Positions 1 to 6,276 of a stretch of 6,276 bases of DNA are shown in pieces; position 1 is the first letter of the stretch; each line of letters begins with the position of its first letter. The stretch covers positions 1 through 6,276 of IMG/VR virus record IMGVR_UViG_3300020029_000033. One strand, given 5' to 3'. The DNA comes from a virus. A program made the translations under genes and the position numbers. The notes under the pieces are model-generated. The model saw only the letters and a program-made list of their open reading frames with translations. It was not told the DNA's origin and made no database searches.

Positions 1-121
1 GTCTGACAATGCCGGGATACAACACAGTTAAATCGTTCCTCATCTGTCATACCGTCCATCACAGTAGATTGAGTAGGATGCATCTGGGCAAGGATATTAT
101 TAACGTTCATATCACCAAGCA
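1..121. repeat. Terminal direct repeat, copy 1 (assembly overlap of a circular genome)
   Basis: Bases 1-121 (gtctgacaatgccggg...atcaccaagca) were compared by eye with 6156-6276 and are identical. This implies a circular unit of 6,155 nt. Confidence 0.95.
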
Positions 122-308
122 AACGACGGTACTTTTCCTGATTCAGAAGAATCTGAGTCATATCACATTGAATCAAATCACCGTCAGGAGTCTCATCATA
201 CATAACCGAATCATAAACAGAAGCCTGATAACACGGATTGCCTTCCTTCAGCTCAGGAACATACGAATTCTTTTCAAAATTCTCATTTTTATACGCAAAA
301 CTTCTCAT
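1..308 (-). CDS. N-terminal part (102 codons plus 2 nt) of a 147-aa wrap-around ORF; internal scaffolding protein (VP3)-like
   Basis: Hand translation of the minus strand from the ATG at 308-306 gives MRSFAYKNENFEKNSYVPELKEGNPCYQASVYDSVMYDETPDGDLIQCDMTQILLNQEKYRRLLGD with no stop. It runs in frame into the Met at position 110 (= 6265 in the second repeat copy). The ATG lies 10 nt downstream of the VP1 stop. The segment QCDMTQILLNQEKY resembles, from memory, the ECDINxIxxKY motif of gokushovirus VP3. Confidence 0.6.
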   Translation of the reverse strand, partial: MRSFAYKNENFEKNSYVPELKEGNPCYQASVYDSVMYDETPDGDLIQCDMTQILLNQEKYRRLLGDMNVNNILAQMHPTQSTVMDGMTDEERFNCVVSRHCQ

Positions 309-318
309 AATCAATACA

Positions 319-2049
319 TTAATAAGGTAAACCATTTCTATCCAAGTTCTGAACAGCATAAACCTGGAAATTGACATTACATAATAACTGGTCATAAGCA
401 ACGGAACAATTAGTACCGGAAACTTGAGGCTCAAAAATAGAGTTCAATTGTTGAGGACGAATTTTCATTGACTGATAAGACCAAGCACCAGAAGAAGTAA
501 GAACATCCCAACCATCAATAGGAGCAGACCAAGACTGATATGCCATACCAGAACGGAACGCAGCATGAACAGTATCAATATTAGACTTCCATTGCCAGTA
601 GCGGAGATTATAACCGATAGACCCAGAAACAGAACGAGACGGGTTGTTATGAAGATTCAGAGCAGGGACAGGCTGCATACCTAACTGGTCGAACGCAGGT
701 TGGGGGAAGTCAGTAATAGCCGTAACAGTCAATTGAGGATTCTGTCCAGTCAGATTCCAATCAACCATAGGAACTGCATGATAAACACACATAATCACCT
801 GATGCTCAGCGCCACAATCATAAGTTAATGTATGTCCAGACTGAGAACCAACACCTTTACCAGCGATAGAAGCCTGAGAATCATTGGTGTCCAAGTTGGT
901 ATTCACAACTTCATTGATATTGATTACATTAGACCAACCACCAATATAATGAGAATGATTACCCATGTATTCAGGGGCTTTAATACCAAATTGGGCAGCC
1001 ATCTGGTCTGAATAGTCCTTACTAGAGAACTGAACTACTTCTTTCCAACGCTGGAGGTATTCCGTTGCACGAATTGAGAGGGCGGAAAGGTCAGAATTAA
1101 GCTGAACAGCACGTTGAGAGGTGAACGTACCAGAGGCGATAACAGAATTAGACTCTTTAGGATTAACGACATAGTCCACATTAGGATTACCAACAGCAAC
1201 AATAGAGTTAGAGGAACCTTGAGGATTAAAAACACCCGGTAAAGCAGCAACCGAACCATACTGGCTATTCGGAAGCATACCCATAAAATAATCTTTCGGG
1301 TAATTGGCATAACGAAGCTGGAGCATCTCAGGAGCGAGATTCAATTGAGACTTTCCGTCCCAATAATCAACATTGTAAGAATAAGCCAAGTGTTTTTCCC
1401 ATTGAGATTCAGAAAAGAAATCATAATAAATCTTCTGATAAGCCAACAACGGAAGAAGATTCACAGTCTGACTAACGCTATAAACCAAAGGATTATCAAC
1501 ATCAAGAATTTCATTTTCGCTTAAACCTAAGTAAGCCTTAGTAATAGCATATTTAGCAGTATTCGAAGACGCAAGGAAAGAACCATATCCAAGCATATCT
1601 AATACCTTAGAAGCACCATAGACATAAGGAAGACCAGCATCATCGAAAACATCATTACCATTAATCGTCTGAAGACTCAATGACAACAAGTTCAACGTTG
1701 TATTCGGGACAGAAGTCAACATCTCGGCGTTAGCAGTGTTACTAGCAGCAGCTGTCATATAATCCGTCATCTGAGTAAACGCTTGCGGCAGCGCGCGAGA
1801 AATCAAGCGTAACGGCACAGCGTAAAAGTCATAATACTCTTTAATACGGGTATATGCAGCCGTATTGACGGGAACAGTACGGGTAAACCAATCGGAAGAA
1901 ATACGATACTTGTTACCAGGAATAGCAATCTGCCAATAACAAGGAAGGATTTCTCCAACTTTTGCCGTAAAAAGTTTTTTACTAGACAAGTCAAAGGAAG
2001 AGCGATGAACGGCAACTTTCGCTCGGTCTAGCGGATTAAAATCACTCAT
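319..2049 (-). CDS. VP1: Major capsid protein (Microviridae VP1 / F-like)
   Basis: The ORF is 576 aa. The N-terminal segment HRSSFDLSSKKLFTAKVGEILPCYWQIAIPGNKYRIS matches the conserved microvirus capsid N-terminal pattern (R..FDLS....T...G.L.P......lPGd...i). Size and position immediately after Rep are typical. Confidence 0.93.
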   Translation of the reverse strand: MSDFNPLDRAKVAVHRSSFDLSSKKLFTAKVGEILPCYWQIAIPGNKYRISSDWFTRTVPVNTAAYTRIKEYYDFYAVPLRLISRALPQAFTQMTDYMTAAASNTANAEMLTSVPNTTLNLLSLSLQTINGNDVFDDAGLPYVYGASKVLDMLGYGSFLASSNTAKYAITKAYLGLSENEILDVDNPLVYSVSQTVNLLPLLAYQKIYYDFFSESQWEKHLAYSYNVDYWDGKSQLNLAPEMLQLRYANYPKDYFMGMLPNSQYGSVAALPGVFNPQGSSNSIVAVGNPNVDYVVNPKESNSVIASGTFTSQRAVQLNSDLSALSIRATEYLQRWKEVVQFSSKDYSDQMAAQFGIKAPEYMGNHSHYIGGWSNVININEVVNTNLDTNDSQASIAGKGVGSQSGHTLTYDCGAEHQVIMCVYHAVPMVDWNLTGQNPQLTVTAITDFPQPAFDQLGMQPVPALNLHNNPSRSVSGSIGYNLRYWQWKSNIDTVHAAFRSGMAYQSWSAPIDGWDVLTSSGAWSYQSMKIRPQQLNSIFEPQVSGTNCSVAYDQLLCNVNFQVYAVQNLDRNGLPY

Positions 2050-2065
2050 AATTAATTAATTTAAA

Positions 2066-3886
2066 TTAGACCATACGGTTAAATATATCATTAGCATCAT
2101 TCAATTTCTTATGCTTAATCATATCGCGGCAGAAGGTAGCAGCACGGAAATCAAGACACCGTTGTAAGTCGCTACTTTGCCCACTATCATAGGTACTTCT
2201 TGTATCGGGTTTCGCGGATTTGATGTAATTACAAGCCGCGAGAGATGGGATTCTGGGATCATCAAACGGAACGTATATCTGTTTTTTAATGGGACGAATA
2301 AATCCGTCTGCATATTCTCCGTCTTCTCCGATACCAATGGACGCCATTTCGCATCCCTCGGCTGGTACATAGAAATACCGAAGCATAGGGGCTGGCAAAG
2401 TCTGTTGTATTCGCAACGAATCACACATTCGTACATAGTCCGCTTTCTTTTCATATTCTATTCCGGTTTTGATGATAAAATTAATACGATTGGCATAAGA
2501 ATCAAGATTGCCACCGATGGGAGGCAAATGCCAATTTCTGAGAAACTTACTGACATAAAGGAATAGCCGATATAATTTATTAATATAAGATTCAATATCG
2601 ACATCAGAAGAACTGTTACAGAGCCTAGTAAGGCACCGAGCATTGTGTAATATAATTTCGTCTTCATTGGTTAGATGATGATTCAATGTAAGATACTGAT
2701 AATAAGCGCGAACAATAGAAAGGATAGAATCGGAATCATAATCTATAATACCGAACCTTGCCATTCTTTTTGGCGCGCTTGCAACAGCTCGAATAATTCT
2801 AGCAATCGAAACAGCATCATCATAGCGAGCACTTGAGAATCGGGGGAGTAAGGTACGGATATACGACACGGGGGGAGTTGATTTAACACTAATCCCGTTG
2901 AAGTTATAGATTCGTCCATTAACGACAGAATCGATCTTTTGTTCAATCGCGTGATAGATGTCTTCACCTTCCTCAAAAACCTCGCCTTTTTCAAAAAATC
3001 CAATAGACGCTCTCTGGCAGGGTCTAAACGCGCGGCATGATCTATATAATAGGGGAGCAGAACTAAGGCTGTTAACGTAACTCGCAACGTACGATGCAGC
3101 TCCACCGCGGGAAGTCTGGAAATCTGAACGACCGAGCTTCCAACTCTTATCATGACACTGTCGTAATACCTTTGAGACTTCTTTCGAGTTCGTGAATAAT
3201 AAGATATGATAATGCGGGCGGAAACGAAATGGTCCGTATTCACCCACAGCGTAGAAATGTAACGTTTCATAAGAACCTAAAGCCGTTTTTAAATGTTTAC
3301 GTAATCGTTTAATATAGTTCTGAACATCGACATAATTCAGAAAAGGAATAAGATTATCCCCGTATCTAACGGAAAGCTCTCCCTCTTTACCGTAAGGTGT
3401 AGCAGATTTCGTCTTAGCGATAAAAGAGCGAATAGCATCCATAGAAAGAAACCAATTATCTTTAACCGATTCATATTGACCTAATTCACGGTTATACGGA
3501 ACTGTACCCTGTACTTGTGTAAAGTATATATGTCGCAATTGTTGTGGATCTGTACAACAATATTCGGATACCGGAACAAACGAATGTTTTTCATAACCAT
3601 AAACAACGCCAGAATCACTTAAAACATCGTCGTATTCAGAATGATACACCTCACAATTAAACAACGGAATGTGCTCGTTATCATAAGTAAGCGTAACAAA
3701 CCAACAATGTTCAAAGGCACTTCCAGCGGTATTCACACGCATGGACGCCTTTTGAGCTCGCTTGTATATACAATAGTCACATTGACCGCAATCTACAGCG
3801 ATACGCTTACCTGTATATCTGTTGGTAATGAAAGAGCGATGCTGACAATGATCAGCAGCTTTAAGTAACTCCGGCGTATATTTCAT
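2066..3886 (-). CDS. VP4: Rolling-circle replication initiation protein (Microviridae VP4 / gpA-like HUH endonuclease)
   Basis: The ORF is 606 aa. RCR motif 1 is FVTLTY (nt 3683-3700). The HUH motif is HYHILLF (nt 3194-3214). The catalytic double-Tyr motif is YVASYV (nt 3074-3091; compare phiX174 gpA YVAKY). All three were verified by hand translation. An N-terminal Cys/His cluster C14-x-H16...C33-x2-C36-x2-C39 lies at nt 3770-3847. Confidence 0.93.
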   Translation of the reverse strand: MKYTPELLKAADHCQHRSFITNRYTGKRIAVDCGQCDYCIYKRAQKASMRVNTAGSAFEHCWFVTLTYDNEHIPLFNCEVYHSEYDDVLSDSGVVYGYEKHSFVPVSEYCCTDPQQLRHIYFTQVQGTVPYNRELGQYESVKDNWFLSMDAIRSFIAKTKSATPYGKEGELSVRYGDNLIPFLNYVDVQNYIKRLRKHLKTALGSYETLHFYAVGEYGPFRFRPHYHILLFTNSKEVSKVLRQCHDKSWKLGRSDFQTSRGGAASYVASYVNSLSSAPLLYRSCRAFRPCQRASIGFFEKGEVFEEGEDIYHAIEQKIDSVVNGRIYNFNGISVKSTPPVSYIRTLLPRFSSARYDDAVSIARIIRAVASAPKRMARFGIIDYDSDSILSIVRAYYQYLTLNHHLTNEDEIILHNARCLTRLCNSSSDVDIESYINKLYRLFLYVSKFLRNWHLPPIGGNLDSYANRINFIIKTGIEYEKKADYVRMCDSLRIQQTLPAPMLRYFYVPAEGCEMASIGIGEDGEYADGFIRPIKKQIYVPFDDPRIPSLAACNYIKSAKPDTRSTYDSGQSSDLQRCLDFRAATFCRDMIKHKKLNDANDIFNRMV

Positions 3887-3891
3887 AATTA

Positions 3892-4197
3892 TTATCTTTT
3901 ATCAATCACTTGGCGACGATCACGTGAACCAAATGAAACATGAATAAAATTAGGATAAATAATAAGTTGGTCAAAAGGAGAAAAACGATCAGAATAATCA
4001 TAGATCATCTCAAGCAACTTACTAAAACTAGTAGAGCCATAAGGCTTGATATCAATAGCTTCACCCATCAGATGTTGAGAATTAGGAGCGCCATTACAAG
4101 CCTTATTCTGTTCGGGAGTGCGACGTGCACTAGTTACTGTAAAATGAGTATTAGAAAGCAACAAATACTCCAGAAAACGCATAAGGAATAAATTCAT
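3892..4197 (-). CDS. Zinc peptidase, LAS-fold / peptidase M15 family (D-Ala-D-Ala carboxypeptidase-like); putative peptidoglycan hydrolase (endolysin)
   Basis: The ORF is 101 aa. TSARRTPEQNKACNGAPNSQHLMGEAIDI contains the canonical SxHxxGxAxD motif (S40, H42, G45, A47, D49; nt 4051-4080). A distal His86 sits in FIHVS (nt 3940-3942). Together these give the three expected Zn ligands H/D/H. The protein is the catalytic domain only, with no wall-binding domain. Confidence 0.82.
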   Translation of the reverse strand: MNLFLMRFLEYLLLSNTHFTVTSARRTPEQNKACNGAPNSQHLMGEAIDIKPYGSTSFSKLLEMIYDYSDRFSPFDQLIIYPNFIHVSFGSRDRRQVIDKR

Positions 4198-4277
4198 AAT
4201 CCAATAGCATTAAGAATGTAACCAAGAGCAGCAGAAATAGCACCAATTACGATTTTCCAAATATTATTACTTTTCAT
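4194..4277 (-). CDS. Small single-pass transmembrane peptide (27 aa), candidate holin-like/lysis accessory protein
   Basis: The sequence MKSNNIWKIVIGAISAALGYILNAIGL has a polar N-terminus followed by a 22-residue hydrophobic helix. Its TGA (4196-4194) overlaps the peptidase ATG (4197-4195) as ATGA. It fills the otherwise non-coding 73 nt between ORF64 and the peptidase. It is the C-terminal part of the 74-aa track ORF 4194..4418. Confidence 0.4.
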   Translation of the reverse strand: MKSNNIWKIVIGAISAALGYILNAIGL

Positions 4278-4461
4278 CAGATTGAGATTTAAGTTCAACG
4301 AAATCATTTTCTTCTTTAATTGAATCCACAATAACAATAAGACCCAACGGAGAAACTCGCTCAGAATAATTTCCAAGACCATCCAAAGAATTGACAATAT
4401 AAGGCGGCATAACATCACGACCAGTTTGTTTTTCTTTAAGGGAAATAATAAATTTTTGCAT
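4267..4461 (-). CDS. Hypothetical protein, 64 aa, acidic C-terminus
   Basis: This is the first ORF after the intergenic region, and its amino-acid composition is protein-like. It lies in a genome with almost no non-coding DNA. I recognise no motif in it. Confidence 0.5.
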   Translation of the reverse strand: MQKFIISLKEKQTGRDVMPPYIVNSLDGLGNYSERVSPLGLIVIVDSIKEENDFVELKSQSDEK

Positions 4462-4512
4462 AATTTTAAAATTTTTAATGTTAATAATTTAATGAGTTGG
4501 TTTCTACAGGGG

Positions 4513-4543
4513 CAAAGGAAAACATTATTTTTGAATAAACAAA
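4513..4543 (-). promoter_or_regulatory. Candidate Bacteroides-type promoter (-33 TTTG / -7 TAnnTTTG-like) for ORF64 and the downstream genes
   Basis: On the minus strand, TTTG (4543->4540) is followed by 19 nt and then TTCCTTTG (4520->4513). This differs by one mismatch from TAnnTTTG at the expected 19-21 nt spacing. The implied leader to the ATG at 4461 is about 45 nt. Confidence 0.3.
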
Positions 4544-4597
4544 ATATTTCGGAGTTTTTTTATTCTACAGTTGGGGTGTGAGTTGTGCGTTTATGGA

Positions 4598-4632
4598 CAA
4601 GAAAAGGCGAAATTGAGATGATAACTCAATTT
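4598..4632 (-). terminator. Candidate intrinsic terminator / hairpin
   Basis: A perfect 8-bp stem joins AAATTGAG (4610-4617) and CTCAATTT (4625-4632) around a 7-nt loop. In the minus sense it is followed by CGCCTTTTCTTG (4609->4598). It sits between the VP2 stop and the candidate promoter. Confidence 0.3.
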
Positions 4633-4669
4633 TCCTCCGGACACAACTAGGGGCTCCGCTTGAATGACA

Positions 4670-4718
4670 TAGGTGTATAGGCACGGCAAGTCAAGTCTGT
4701 CTTGCCTTTGCGCACCTA
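4670..4718. other. Long imperfect hairpin (about 15 bp in three helical segments)
   Basis: TAGGTG (4670-4675) pairs with CACCTA (4713-4718). GCA (4681-4683) pairs with TGC (4709-4711). GGCAAG (4685-4690) pairs with CTTGCC (4701-4706), enclosing a 10-nt loop. Confidence 0.5.
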
Positions 4719-4720
4719 CG

Positions 4721-4747
4721 TGCTAAAATACCGGAGCGGGGCGCTCC
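4721..4747 (-). terminator. GC hairpin followed by a T-tract, terminator-like
   Basis: GGAGCG (4733-4738) pairs with CGCTCC (4742-4747) around a 3-nt loop. In the minus sense the hairpin is followed by GGTATTTTAGC. Its arms have competing partners elsewhere in the island. Confidence 0.25.
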
Positions 4748-4805
4748 TATAAGGAAGTCGCTCCGCTCCATTTTTCGACCAGGCCCTATGCGGGCGGCAG
4801 GTGTA

Positions 4806-4826
4806 TATCGCTCAAACGCCGCGATA
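4806..4826. other. Hairpin
   Basis: TATCGC (4806-4811) pairs with GCGATA (4821-4826) around a 9-nt loop. An overlapping alternative pairs GCGGC (4794-4798) with GCCGC (4818-4822). Confidence 0.3.
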
Positions 4827-4856
4827 GGCTTCTAGTCCTGAAGTATGTACTAACAG

Positions 4857-6023
4857 CTAATAACCAATACCATTAGAACTATTATAAATAGTAGTATTAC
4901 GAGGACCGTAATCATTACGGAAAATCTGAGCACCGGGGCGCATAGATCCGATAACATTACCAGCACCAGAAGCAATACGAGATGTATAATCTATAGCATT
5001 ACGAAGGCCGTAGGATTCAAAATCCTTCTTGGCATTTCCAGCAGACCACTTATAATAGTCGCGCAAGGCCTTATCCTTAGAATACTGCATATTCTTACGA
5101 TTATTGACGTTCTTATAATCCCAAAGAGAATCATAATACTGTGTATAGTAAGCCATATTAGTAGCACTTATAAGAGCATCAGCAGTACCAGCAGCTATCT
5201 TATTAGTAATCTTCTGTCCTTGCGCCTGAGCAGCTATCAGGATTGCACGTTGAATTTCAGTTCGAATCTGTTTCTCAGTTAAAGCTCCTTGTTGTACAAG
5301 GTTATAAAGATACTGGGCTTTTGTAAACAGATCTGCTTGCTGCTGGGCATCCATATACTTATTCATAATAGCTTGAGCATCAGACTGTAAATAGACCTGG
5401 GTCGTTTGAGCGGCAGAAAGCTTACCAGCAGTAACAGCGTTCTCTAATTGTTGACGCTCCATAGATTGGTCTAATTCAGCAGAAATACGACCTGTGTCCT
5501 TATTCCAATAACCAGATTGACCAACACCAATATTCTTATAATTAGTATCGCCTAAAATCCTATTTACCAAATAAGGAGTAAGAGTCTCTATCTGTTTAGA
5601 TTCAGAAAGAGCCTTTTTGGCTTGAGCAAACGAAGCCAAAGCAGTATCCACAGTTGAAAGGTCCGGATGAAAAGCCTGGTACGGAATAGGACTGACAGCA
5701 GAAGCTTGAGCACCAGAAGGTGAAGAACCCGAACCAGCACCAGTCTGAGCAGCAGAACCAGACATAAAAGGATTCAAACCACGAGCAATCATAGCTTCAG
5801 GAGAATTATATTCTCGCGACTCATCAACCATTTTTTCTTGCCAATCACGCTGCTTCTGGGCTTCCAGCATATTAAACTTATTAGTAGTCTGAGTATTGCG
5901 ATAATTAGCACGATTAGCGCTAGACTGTTGCAATGTACCGAAGATACCACCAATAGCAGCACCAAGGAAATGATGTTCATTTCTAGGAGAGAGCAGGCTC
6001 TCTCCAACTTCTAGAAACCTCAT
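4857..6023 (-). CDS. VP2: Minor capsid / DNA pilot protein (Microviridae VP2 / H-like)
   Basis: The ORF is 388 aa. It has a Gly-rich hydrophobic N-terminus (FLGAAIGGIFG). The segment AQKQRDWQEKM...EAMIARGLNPF (nt 5769-5864) matches the remembered VP2 pattern (..R.WqE.Ms......aGLNP). A G/S/A-rich linker is followed by a long Q/A-rich helical region, consistent with a coiled-coil tube. The ATG (6023-6021) overlaps the upstream TGA as ATGA. Confidence 0.85.
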   Translation of the reverse strand: MRFLEVGESLLSPRNEHHFLGAAIGGIFGTLQQSSANRANYRNTQTTNKFNMLEAQKQRDWQEKMVDESREYNSPEAMIARGLNPFMSGSAAQTGAGSGSSPSGAQASAVSPIPYQAFHPDLSTVDTALASFAQAKKALSESKQIETLTPYLVNRILGDTNYKNIGVGQSGYWNKDTGRISAELDQSMERQQLENAVTAGKLSAAQTTQVYLQSDAQAIMNKYMDAQQQADLFTKAQYLYNLVQQGALTEKQIRTEIQRAILIAAQAQGQKITNKIAAGTADALISATNMAYYTQYYDSLWDYKNVNNRKNMQYSKDKALRDYYKWSAGNAKKDFESYGLRNAIDYTSRIASGAGNVIGSMRPGAQIFRNDYGPRNTTIYNSSNGIGY

Positions 6024-6276
6024 TGTGCACTAGCGGCAGGGGCGGAATCCGTAGACGGCGCTGCCTGTTCCTCTGCCAGCATAGCTTGAGCATATGCAGT
6101 AAGATCGGATTTCTCATTAGCCAATTGCCGTAATACAGCTTGACGTTCAGACATTGTCTGACAATGCCGGGATACAACACAGTTAAATCGTTCCTCATCT
6201 GTCATACCGTCCATCACAGTAGATTGAGTAGGATGCATCTGGGCAAGGATATTATTAACGTTCATATCACCAAGCA
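6020..6276 (-). CDS. C-terminal part of the same 147-aa wrap-around VP3-like ORF (second window copy)
   Basis: The 81-aa track ORF 6020..6265 begins at an internal Met (residue 67 of the full ORF). Its reading frame stays open to the window end and continues, through the repeat, to the ATG at 308. The stop TGA lies at 6022-6020. Confidence 0.6.
   Translation of the reverse strand, partial: LGDMNVNNILAQMHPTQSTVMDGMTDEERFNCVVSRHCQTMSERQAVLRQLANEKSDLTAYAQAMLAEEQAAPSTDSAPAASAQ
6156..6276. repeat. Terminal direct repeat, copy 2 (assembly overlap of a circular genome)
   Basis: This segment is identical to bases 1-121. Confidence 0.95.

Follow-up and report, generated by a model that had tools for sequence, protein, structure and literature searches.

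Microviruses of the kind considered here are among the most abundant phages of mammalian guts. For microviruses other than phiX174, the mode of host lysis is a recognized gap in knowledge (PMC7062461), and a gene for a putative wall-cutting peptidase in one such genome raises the question of what the enzyme does there. We addressed this question by a computational analysis of positions 1 to 6,276 of IMG/VR record IMGVR_UViG_3300020029_000033 (hereafter the window, that is, the whole stretch of 6,276 nucleotides (nt) that was analyzed), centered on the peptidase gene at 3892-4197 to which an initial annotation had drawn attention. The gene proved to be a further copy of a described and annotated microviral M15 gene known since 2012. 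What is new is its minimal, truncated domain, an unannotated and constrained membrane peptide of 27 amino acids encoded just ahead of it, and a presence/absence polymorphism of the enzyme. We consider it likely that the locus combines an optional endolysin-type M15A enzyme with a conserved holin-like or E-like membrane peptide.

The peptidase and its active site

The peptidase open reading frame (ORF) runs on the minus strand from an ATG at 4197-4195 to a TAA at 3894-3892, and its product is MNLFLMRFLEYLLLSNTHFTVTSARRTPEQNKACNGAPNSQHLMGEAIDIKPYGSTSFSKLLEMIYDYSDRFSPFDQLIIYPNFIHVSFGSRDRRQVIDKR. The 101-residue ORF of the initial annotation was borne out, and its strand, which had been left unstated, is minus. 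The codons of the SxHxxGxAxD signature were checked singly (S40 at 4078-4080, H42 at 4072-4074, G45, A47, and D49 at 4051-4053), as was the distal histidine (H86 at 3940-3942, followed by V87 and S88 down to 3934); both motifs were confirmed codon by codon. The reported distance of 5 nt to Rep also stands, with the peptidase stop codon at 3892-3894 and the Rep ATG at 3886. The features of the locus are:

4194..4277, minus strand: 27-codon micro-ORF, upstream neighbor of the peptidase
4194..4197, minus strand: ATGA overlap of the micro-ORF stop (TGA) and the peptidase start (ATG), an arrangement typical of translational coupling
3892..4197, minus strand: M15_3 zinc peptidase gene, 101 amino acids, 11.8 kDa (PF08291, PHROG 894, AlphaFold2, Foldseek)
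4051..4080, minus strand: codons S40-D49, SxHxxGxAxD; H42 and D49 are putative Zn ligands and align to the Hedgehog/1lbu motif and to H63/D70 of the endolysin LysPM1
3955..3972, minus strand: codons D76-Q77-L-I-I-Y81, forming the 'FDQ...Y' block; apart from D49, no acidic residue other than D76 is near-invariant
3934..3948, minus strand: codons F84-I85-H86-V87-S88, the (W/F)xH motif (defined in PMC13461873); H86 is the third putative Zn ligand
3887..3891, minus strand: 5-nt spacer from the peptidase stop to the Rep start, the downstream border of the optional cassette

Family and fold agreed with the call of an M15/LAS zinc peptidase in the initial annotation. Pfam Peptidase_M15_3 (PF08291) matched above threshold (E = 1e-9; 38.9 bits, the curated cutoff being 23.2) over profile positions 43-107 of 108, and PHROG 894 'endolysin' matched at 7e-15. 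M15_2, M15_4 and DUF5715 gave weak matches below threshold, and no NCBIfam model matched the peptidase. A PDB search with the single protein sequence returned only a weak match to 1lbu, the Zn D-Ala-D-Ala carboxypeptidase of Streptomyces albus G and type enzyme of M15A. With a profile of 93 diverse homologues, 1lbu was matched at 5e-12 and Hedgehog N-domains at ~1e-4, the SxH..G.A.D and the distal 'FD..Y.E...H-x-S' blocks both being aligned in the latter. The AlphaFold2 model, for which the homologue alignment served as input, reached a pLDDT of 96.9 and a pTM of 0.87. Its best Foldseek match in PDB was likewise 1lbu (E 3e-4, prob 1.00, TMq 0.61, root-mean-square deviation 2.5 Å over 84 columns), followed by VanY, Indian and Sonic hedgehog-N, LdcB, the RB49 L-Ala-D-Glu peptidase, and VldE. 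Against BFVD, Foldseek found 52 viral matches at E<=1e-3; nearly all of the named ones are 'Peptidase M15A, C-terminal', and the peptidases of Microvirus mar50, mar52, mar54, and mar59 are among the matches. Collectively, these results make it secure that the protein belongs to the M15_3 (MEROPS M15A) zinc-peptidase family, with the Hedgehog/DD-peptidase 'LAS' fold. The BFVD matches also include fusions to gp5-like baseplate proteins, and the same fold is an entry lysin elsewhere.

By homology to the ligands of Hedgehog, 1lbu, and LysPM1, residues H42, D49, and H86 would hold Zn2+, and R26 and Y81 are the probable equivalents of two residues in characterized M15A enzymes, the substrate-carboxylate Arg and a conserved Tyr. 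The gene is under purifying selection (pN/pS 0.285, 58 relatives). The three putative ligands are invariant in all 121 close homologues and are present in at least 115 of 123 diverse representatives drawn from a library of 1.84 billion proteins. Together with R26, N31, D76, Q77, and R94, they are conserved almost throughout the close relatives and in 85% or more of the diverse representatives; R26, which lies in an 'SxxR' block, is conserved in 119 of the latter.

The initial annotation had treated the serine two positions after the distal histidine (HVS) as an anomaly, citing HxD in many family members. This part did not survive: position 88 is Ser in 120 of 121 close homologues, and Ser is also the commonest residue there among the diverse representatives (S 91, G 18, A 6, D 2 of 123). 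Hedgehog N-domains share H-x-S. The HxD pattern is correct for another branch of M15_3, as in LysPM1 (H104/D106), but not for the branch to which this peptidase belongs, which is marked by the near-invariant D76-Q77 ('FDQ') and by R26, N31, and R94. As judged from these alignments, HxS is the rule in the 'FDQ' branch of M15_3. Moreover, the endolysin of Burkholderia phage ST79 is lytic yet reads H-I-G at its distal motif; an Asp at the +2 position is therefore unnecessary for lytic activity.

Which residue might then serve as the general base? Position 81 is Tyr in 82 and Glu in 31 of the 123 diverse representatives. ST79, Siara, and Hedgehog have Glu at the position of Tyr81 and Trp or His at that of Phe84. 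The positions that hold the general base in relatives (the HxD Asp of LysPM1, His195 of 1lbu, and the Glu of Hedgehog and ST79) are occupied here by S88, F84, and Y81, respectively. D76 would be the only conserved acidic candidate for this role in the Tyr/Phe/HxS subtype, a subtype that also includes the peptidase of the Bacteroides fragilis microvirus phiHBP1.

Alignment with longer homologues indicates that the microviral enzyme is a truncated member of M15_3. It begins at the helix preceding the 'SGYR' strand, profile positions 1-42 of PF08291 are unmatched, and longer homologues carry an N-terminal consensus 'nF.l.EF..S.TA...gi.N.p'. In the AlphaFold2 model, residues 3-14 form a helix that belongs to the fold. 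The truncated form, of ~101-104 amino acids, is typical for this microvirus clade; a scan of 185,579 species-representative bacterial genomes with a peptidase alignment turned up no close relative and just one partial cyanobacterial match. Neither a signal peptide nor a membrane segment is present in the peptidase (maximum KD19 hydropathy 1.01), which therefore needs help in reaching the wall. The N-terminal truncation was absent from the initial annotation, as was the coupled membrane micro-ORF described below.

The membrane peptide and the optional cassette

The micro-ORF at 4194..4277 (minus strand) encodes MKSNNIWKIVIGAISAALGYILNAIGL, a peptide of 27 residues whose N-terminus is basic and whose single hydrophobic span covers residues 9-27 (KD19 2.03). 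Its small residues G12, S15, A16, G19, N23, and G26 form one helical face. The micro-ORF is conserved in 75 of 77 relatives. Its pN/pS is 0.128 in frame versus 1.77 and 4.22 in the other two frames (77 genomes), variation is concentrated at third codon positions, and the peptide is on average 92% identical at the amino acid level, versus 77% for the peptidase. The ATGA overlap was found in 90 of 102 motif-bearing IMG/VR contigs among the matches listed. A stop codon directly precedes the ATG in two genomes; therefore, the 27-mer, and not the 74-residue extension in the ORF list, is the conserved unit. Codons 5-26 overlap nothing, and the neighboring genes are overlapped by just 11 nt and 4 nt.

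We considered several other explanations of the micro-ORF. Conservation caused by a DNA or RNA element or by an overlapping gene was rejected on account of the third-position variation and a pN/pS of 0.13 in that frame only. A split-off N-terminus of the peptidase was likewise rejected, as the segment missing relative to homologues is hydrophilic and the micro-ORF exists without the peptidase. Nor is the pair a signal-anchor-release (SAR) endolysin, given that the N-terminus of the enzyme is not hydrophobic and the transmembrane (TM) segment is encoded by an ORF of its own in a different frame. No slippery site was visible by eye.

The micro-ORF and its ATGA overlap are kept in Dulem viruses 226, 238, 241, and 243 and in mar56, the peptidases of which are 55.8-66% identical. 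At 47-57% peptidase identity, in bajarodmic virus 410 and Dulem viruses 236 and 257, a different TM peptide of 29 amino acids, MKSETKSKIWSAIIAAAVSLLTSIAQIFS, ends 3 nt before the peptidase (463-552 in bajarodmic virus 410, L089, and in Dulem 236, L090; 466-555 in Dulem 257, L091). It is probably a distant homologue or an analogue of the 27-mer. By tblastn against 50,697 phage records, the micro-ORF was found only in 35 microviruses of this clade and was never annotated alone, and we found no published mention of such a peptide. The micro-ORF is an unannotated real gene, and its description is new here.

In three GenBank records, the annotated coding sequences cross the micro-ORF in another frame (Dulem 238 and 226, labeled 'peptidase', and Dulem 243, labeled 'hypothetical protein'). 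They start 63 nt early in Dulem 238 and 243 and 66 nt early in Dulem 226, giving 124 amino acids versus ~102-103 (L083 PP511887, L084 PP511322, L085 PP511396; ~493-604). A conserved TM ORF of 28-29 amino acids with the ATGA overlap is present in all three.

Next, we asked how firmly the two genes are associated. An IMG/VR scan with the back-translated peptide core hit at least 119 contigs, and all but one of those fetched were microvirus-sized. Among the matches listed, the peptidase motif lies directly downstream of the micro-ORF in 91 of 102 occurrences. The other eleven comprise one chance match in a tailed-phage gene (L167), one genome whose peptidase was recovered by a hidden Markov model (HMM; L182), and nine peptidase-less genomes (L094, L125, L130, L138, L146, L148, L161, L170, and L175), in which a six-frame HMM search found no peptidase anywhere. 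The chance match is a 13-kb contig; both there and in Microbacterium phage Zooman (OK040793, 53767-53904), M15-like motifs (HAFD...HVHVS) are located within tailed-phage proteins, either tape-measure proteins or virion proteins of great length.

In the nine genomes, the peptide is kept (ending in ...GYILSAIGV in seven of them), and a short AT-rich spacer separates it from Rep. Each is closest to a different peptidase-bearing genome, with 88-95% Rep identity versus 84-91% among themselves, and the nine are not monophyletic by Rep; a single loss event is unsupported by the Rep trees. Between L161 and L154, the flanks are ~95% identical, and the ORF of ~310 nt is replaced by an unrelated spacer of ~55 nt with exact borders at the micro-ORF stop and the Rep ATG. 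Since all outgroups carry a peptidase at this site, the peptidase is ancestral and its absence derived. Given that the peptidase-less genomes are scattered and the borders clean, the enzyme has the character of a dispensable cassette that was either lost more than once or exchanged through recombination of one deletion allele. The genomes that have dispensed with it are presumably viable.

The genome, its virus type and earlier records

Positions 1-121 and 6156-6276 of the window form an exact 121-nt direct repeat, so the window represents a circular genome of ~6155 nt that was assembled with an overlap. The genome size of 6.2 kb in the initial annotation is corrected accordingly. All genes of the window lie on the minus strand. 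The remaining features are:

2049..319, minus strand: VP1 (ORF list plus Pfam and PHROG profile matches)
308..1 and 6155..6020, minus strand: 147-residue ORF across the window junction, between VP1 and VP2
6023..4857, minus strand: VP2 pilot protein (ORF list plus Pfam and PHROG profile matches)
4462-4856: ~395 nt with no convincing ORF, between VP2 and the 64-residue ORF
4267..4461, minus strand: conserved 64-residue ORF directly upstream of the micro-ORF, with which it overlaps by 11 nt
2066..3886, minus strand: replication initiator VP4/Rep, 606 amino acids, immediately downstream of the peptidase (PF23343 at 1.6e-16, PHROG 942 at 7e-34)

The first ~270 residues of Rep match the Rep profiles, and residues ~273-606 (the ~330 C-terminal residues) are without a Pfam or PHROG match; among relatives, Rep is either ~559 or ~604-611 amino acids long. 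The junction ORF appears as 81 amino acids in the ORF list of the window because the window ends cut it. It has an equivalent in a 147-residue hypothetical protein of Dulem virus 254, and no Pfam family matched it; by its position, it may be a scaffold (VP3-like) protein. The 64-residue ORF is labeled as a hypothetical protein in Dulem viruses and matched no family in Pfam, PHROG, or NCBIfam. The region equivalent to 4462-4856 carries an annotated hypothetical protein of 50 amino acids (153 nt) in Dulem 254. Within this region of the window, at 4733-4769, lies a GC-rich imperfect inverted repeat, GGAGCGGGGCG / CGCTCCGCTCC, with a 15-nt loop, in a genome that is otherwise AT-rich; it might be a replication-origin or terminator hairpin.

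The initial annotation had framed the virus as a gokushovirus. Alpavirinae are characterized by a longer genome, a long VP4, only VP1, VP2, and VP4 recognizable, and the order VP1-VP2-VP4 (Roux et al., 2012, PMC3394797). Here, no ORF of the window matched the VP3 or VP5 families of Pfam or PHROG, Rep has 606 amino acids instead of being short, the genome is ~6.15 kb, and only VP1, VP2, and VP4 were recognized. Along its entire length, VP1 shares 32% identity with its counterpart in phiHBP1. On these grounds, the virus is probably Alpavirinae-like and the gokushovirus label wrong. Most lemur (Dulem) microviruses have been assigned to Alpavirinae or Parabacteroides groups. A scan with VP1 of the 185,579 species-representative genomes for hosts or prophages returned zero relatives; by analogy with phiHBP1 and Alpavirinae, the host would be Bacteroidota-like.

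The closest relatives were already on record. Dulem viruses 237, 242, 254, and 255, from lemur feces, are ~86% identical over 95% of the window (Dulem 239 over 83%), and a human Microvirus sp. is 84.5% identical over 73%. The gene is annotated 'peptidase' in Dulem 237, 239, 242, 254, and 255 (e.g. PP511485) and in the human Microvirus sp., and over 120 protein clusters in databases, at 81-94% identity, come from contigs of ~6.2 kb. M15_3 peptidases have been reported in five Gokushovirinae and six Alpavirinae; four Alpavirinae carry the gene between VP2 and VP4, and repeated horizontal acquisition was argued and an endolysin role proposed (Roux et al., 2012, PMC3394797). A peptidase is also found in most Occultatumvirinae, cultured roseophages included. 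With these 11 cases, the labels in ~86%-identical genomes, the Occultatumvirinae, and phiHBP1, the suggestion that peptidase genes are only sporadic in microviruses can no longer be upheld. In phiHBP1, the only cultured Bacteroidota microvirus, a full-length FDQ/Tyr/HxS peptidase of 134 amino acids is encoded downstream of Rep (L082, PV598014, 84-488); GenBank lists it as a 'hypothetical protein', and its paper as an M15A metallopeptidase.

Readings of the module and known systems

In the reading that we favor, an optional endolysin-type enzyme with a conserved holin-like or E-like peptide, the family and fold of the enzyme, the purifying selection, the linkage of the genes, and the presence/absence polymorphism are shown, whereas we infer that the enzyme binds Zn, that its substrate is peptidoglycan, that its role lies in lysis, and that the membrane peptide has a function at all. 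Late in infection, the peptide would enter the inner membrane with its N-terminus inside, oligomerize via its small-residue face, and compromise the membrane in a holin-like or phiX174-E-like manner. The ATGA coupling would keep synthesis of the 11.8-kDa enzyme in proportion, and the enzyme would then reach the peptidoglycan, cut stem peptides or cross-links, and speed or complete lysis. As the peptidase is optional and the peptide is kept, the peptide would probably be the primary factor and the enzyme a lysis accelerator; the peptide may even lyse alone, as phiX174 E does, because genomes without the enzyme persist. A role in lysis is the most likely one by analogy, given the association of the two genes and the verified relatives (the cassettes of Siara and ST79 and the activity of the ST79 and LysPM1 enzymes). 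We also advance, tentatively and with some doubt, a bolder proposal: the 27-mer would be the missing lysis effector of Alpavirinae-like gut microviruses, either the smallest holin-type protein known or a new single-gene lysis peptide, and the truncated M15 peptidase a dispensable plug-in endolysin cassette under translational coupling to it. The two genes would form a 384-nt module for lysis, with gain, loss, or exchange of the module among genomes that are otherwise nearly identical.

Several observations weigh against pairing an endolysin-type enzyme with a holin-like or E-like peptide. The peptidase lacks ~25-35 N-terminal residues that most homologues (130-150 amino acids) possess, and no verified enzyme of the Tyr81/Phe84/HxS type was found. 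The ST79 and Siara endolysins differ from it in their length (146-149 amino acids), in having the N-terminal segment, and in carrying Glu and Trp at the positions of Tyr81 and Phe84. The literature reports no biochemical or genetic test of a microviral M15 peptidase, and lysis is presumed there. In classical holin-endolysin systems, the endolysin is indispensable; here, by contrast, natural variants do without the endolysin-type enzyme. As for the peptide, the micro-ORF is absent beside the full-length peptidases of bajarodmic virus 66 and phiHBP1 (a search of phiHBP1 for a counterpart gave nothing convincing), it has no Pfam (E<=10) or NCBIfam match, and it has no homologue outside the clade. 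Known holins have one to several TM segments and a charged C-terminal tail, and are considerably longer than 27 amino acids. The micro-ORF peptide, unlike them, has 27 amino acids, a single TM segment, a C-terminus inside the span, and no charged tail.

Could the 27-residue peptide instead be a self-sufficient lysis protein, a wall-synthesis inhibitor or a pore like phiX174 E/Sgl, next to a peptidase that is non-lytic or marginal? The enzyme might then clear wall debris for virion release, adapt the host range, or exclude superinfection. We regard this as unlikely. Single-gene lysis is an established strategy of small phages, and it would fit well with peptidase-less genomes that retain the constrained peptide and recur in several metagenomes, and with a peptide more conserved than the enzyme. 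Non-phiX microviruses without a known lysis gene (PMC7062461) point the same way. However, the ATGA coupling is kept in ~90% of genomes, an analogous pair of peptide and peptidase is retained down to 47% peptidase identity, and the strong purifying selection acting on the catalytic residues speaks for joint use of enzyme and peptide. The peptide, moreover, resembles neither phiX174 E nor any family, and it occupies its own slot instead of being embedded in another gene. The enzyme might, alternatively, be a catalytically weakened or inactive wall-binding remnant, an explanation that we deem very unlikely. Its N-terminal truncation, the Ser in place of the HxD Asp, the Tyr where ST79, Siara, and Hedgehog have Glu, and the dispensability of the cassette in nature are all compatible with decay. 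Against decay stand the conservation of the ligands and of R26, N31, D76, Q77, and R94, the low pN/pS, and a truncated domain that still folds confidently in the AlphaFold2 model; Tyr81, for its part, is the majority state and has a conserved Tyr as its counterpart in both LysPM1 and 1lbu.

An entry enzyme is another conceivable role, in which the peptidase would open the peptidoglycan locally at genome ejection, having been packaged or delivered alongside the DNA pilot protein. M15A domains in tailed phages are indeed fused to gp5-like baseplate hubs, to virion proteins of ~1000 amino acids, and to tape-measure proteins. The microviral peptidase, however, is a free-standing 11.8-kDa protein, unfused to VP1 or VP2, and its coupling partner is a membrane peptide instead of a structural gene; its nearest tailed-phage homologues lie in lysis cassettes, and sister genomes presumably infect without it. 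T=1 microvirus capsids are not known to offer room for an additional enzyme. We consider an entry role highly improbable, and return to the optional endolysin-type enzyme with its membrane peptide.

By itself, the peptidase changes nothing, as the gene has been catalogued in microviruses since 2012 and is labeled in databases. The peptide, the enzyme, and the natural presence/absence alleles together make the question of microvirus lysis directly testable, since matched natural genomes with and without the peptidase exist at ~95% identity, and phiHBP1 would offer a practical system for the enzyme. Should the peptide prove lytic, it would count as a membrane-active lysis factor of very small size, possibly of use as an antibacterial scaffold. 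The minimal 101-residue M15A domain would mark out the smallest core with which this endolysin family can function.

Among known systems, the M15_3 peptidases of human-gut Alpavirinae and the Dulem viruses share family, genome position, and virus type with the enzyme described here; the Dulem peptidases are 78-79% identical, and this is essentially the same gene, orthologous to the 'peptidase' found between VP2 and Rep across a large clade of Alpavirinae-like gut microviruses. The ST79 and Siara endolysins share its 'FDQ' branch, with the SxHxxGxAxD signature, FDQLI, a distal His without Asp, and a C-terminal RRQ. The homologue in Stenotrophomonas phage Siara, an endolysin endopeptidase, is 44% identical, and its gene shares a lysis cassette with two holin/antiholin genes, an i-spanin, and an o-spanin. 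The ST79 endolysin is 31% identical (8e-11) and reads FDQLIHE..WVHIG; its cassette comprises a holin, the endolysin, and two Rz-like spanin genes (LysB and LysC). This M15A enzyme degraded peptidoglycan in zymogram and turbidity assays (PMC5025407). Conventional holins and spanins thus accompany the ST79 and Siara enzymes, where the microvirus has its 27-residue peptide.

LysPM1 of a Proteus phage is a Zn-dependent endolysin consisting of a single Peptidase_M15_3 domain of 116 amino acids (PMC13461873). Its H63/D70/H104, R47, Y98, and F102 correspond to H42/D49/H86, R26, Y81, and F84 of the microviral enzyme. It differs in the HxD Asp, D106, which has been proposed to act in proton transfer (PMC13461873) and is replaced here by Ser88; the invariant Asp76 of the FDQ block may or may not substitute for it. 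1lbu has the same fold and Zn-ligand motifs and equivalents of the Arg and Tyr (R138/Y189), but it is longer (213 amino acids), has an extra N-terminal wall-binding domain, and uses His as the general base (PMC13461873). The Hedgehog N-domain also shares the fold, together with FD..Y.E...H-x-S, but belongs to a eukaryotic signaling protein. Turning to the peptide, phiX174 E is, like the product of the micro-ORF, a small single-pass membrane product of a tiny single-stranded DNA phage with no other recognized lysis gene; the micro-ORF peptide differs from it in sequence and in having a slot of its own, E being embedded out of frame. In adjoining the gene for a muralytic enzyme, the micro-ORF is holin-like.

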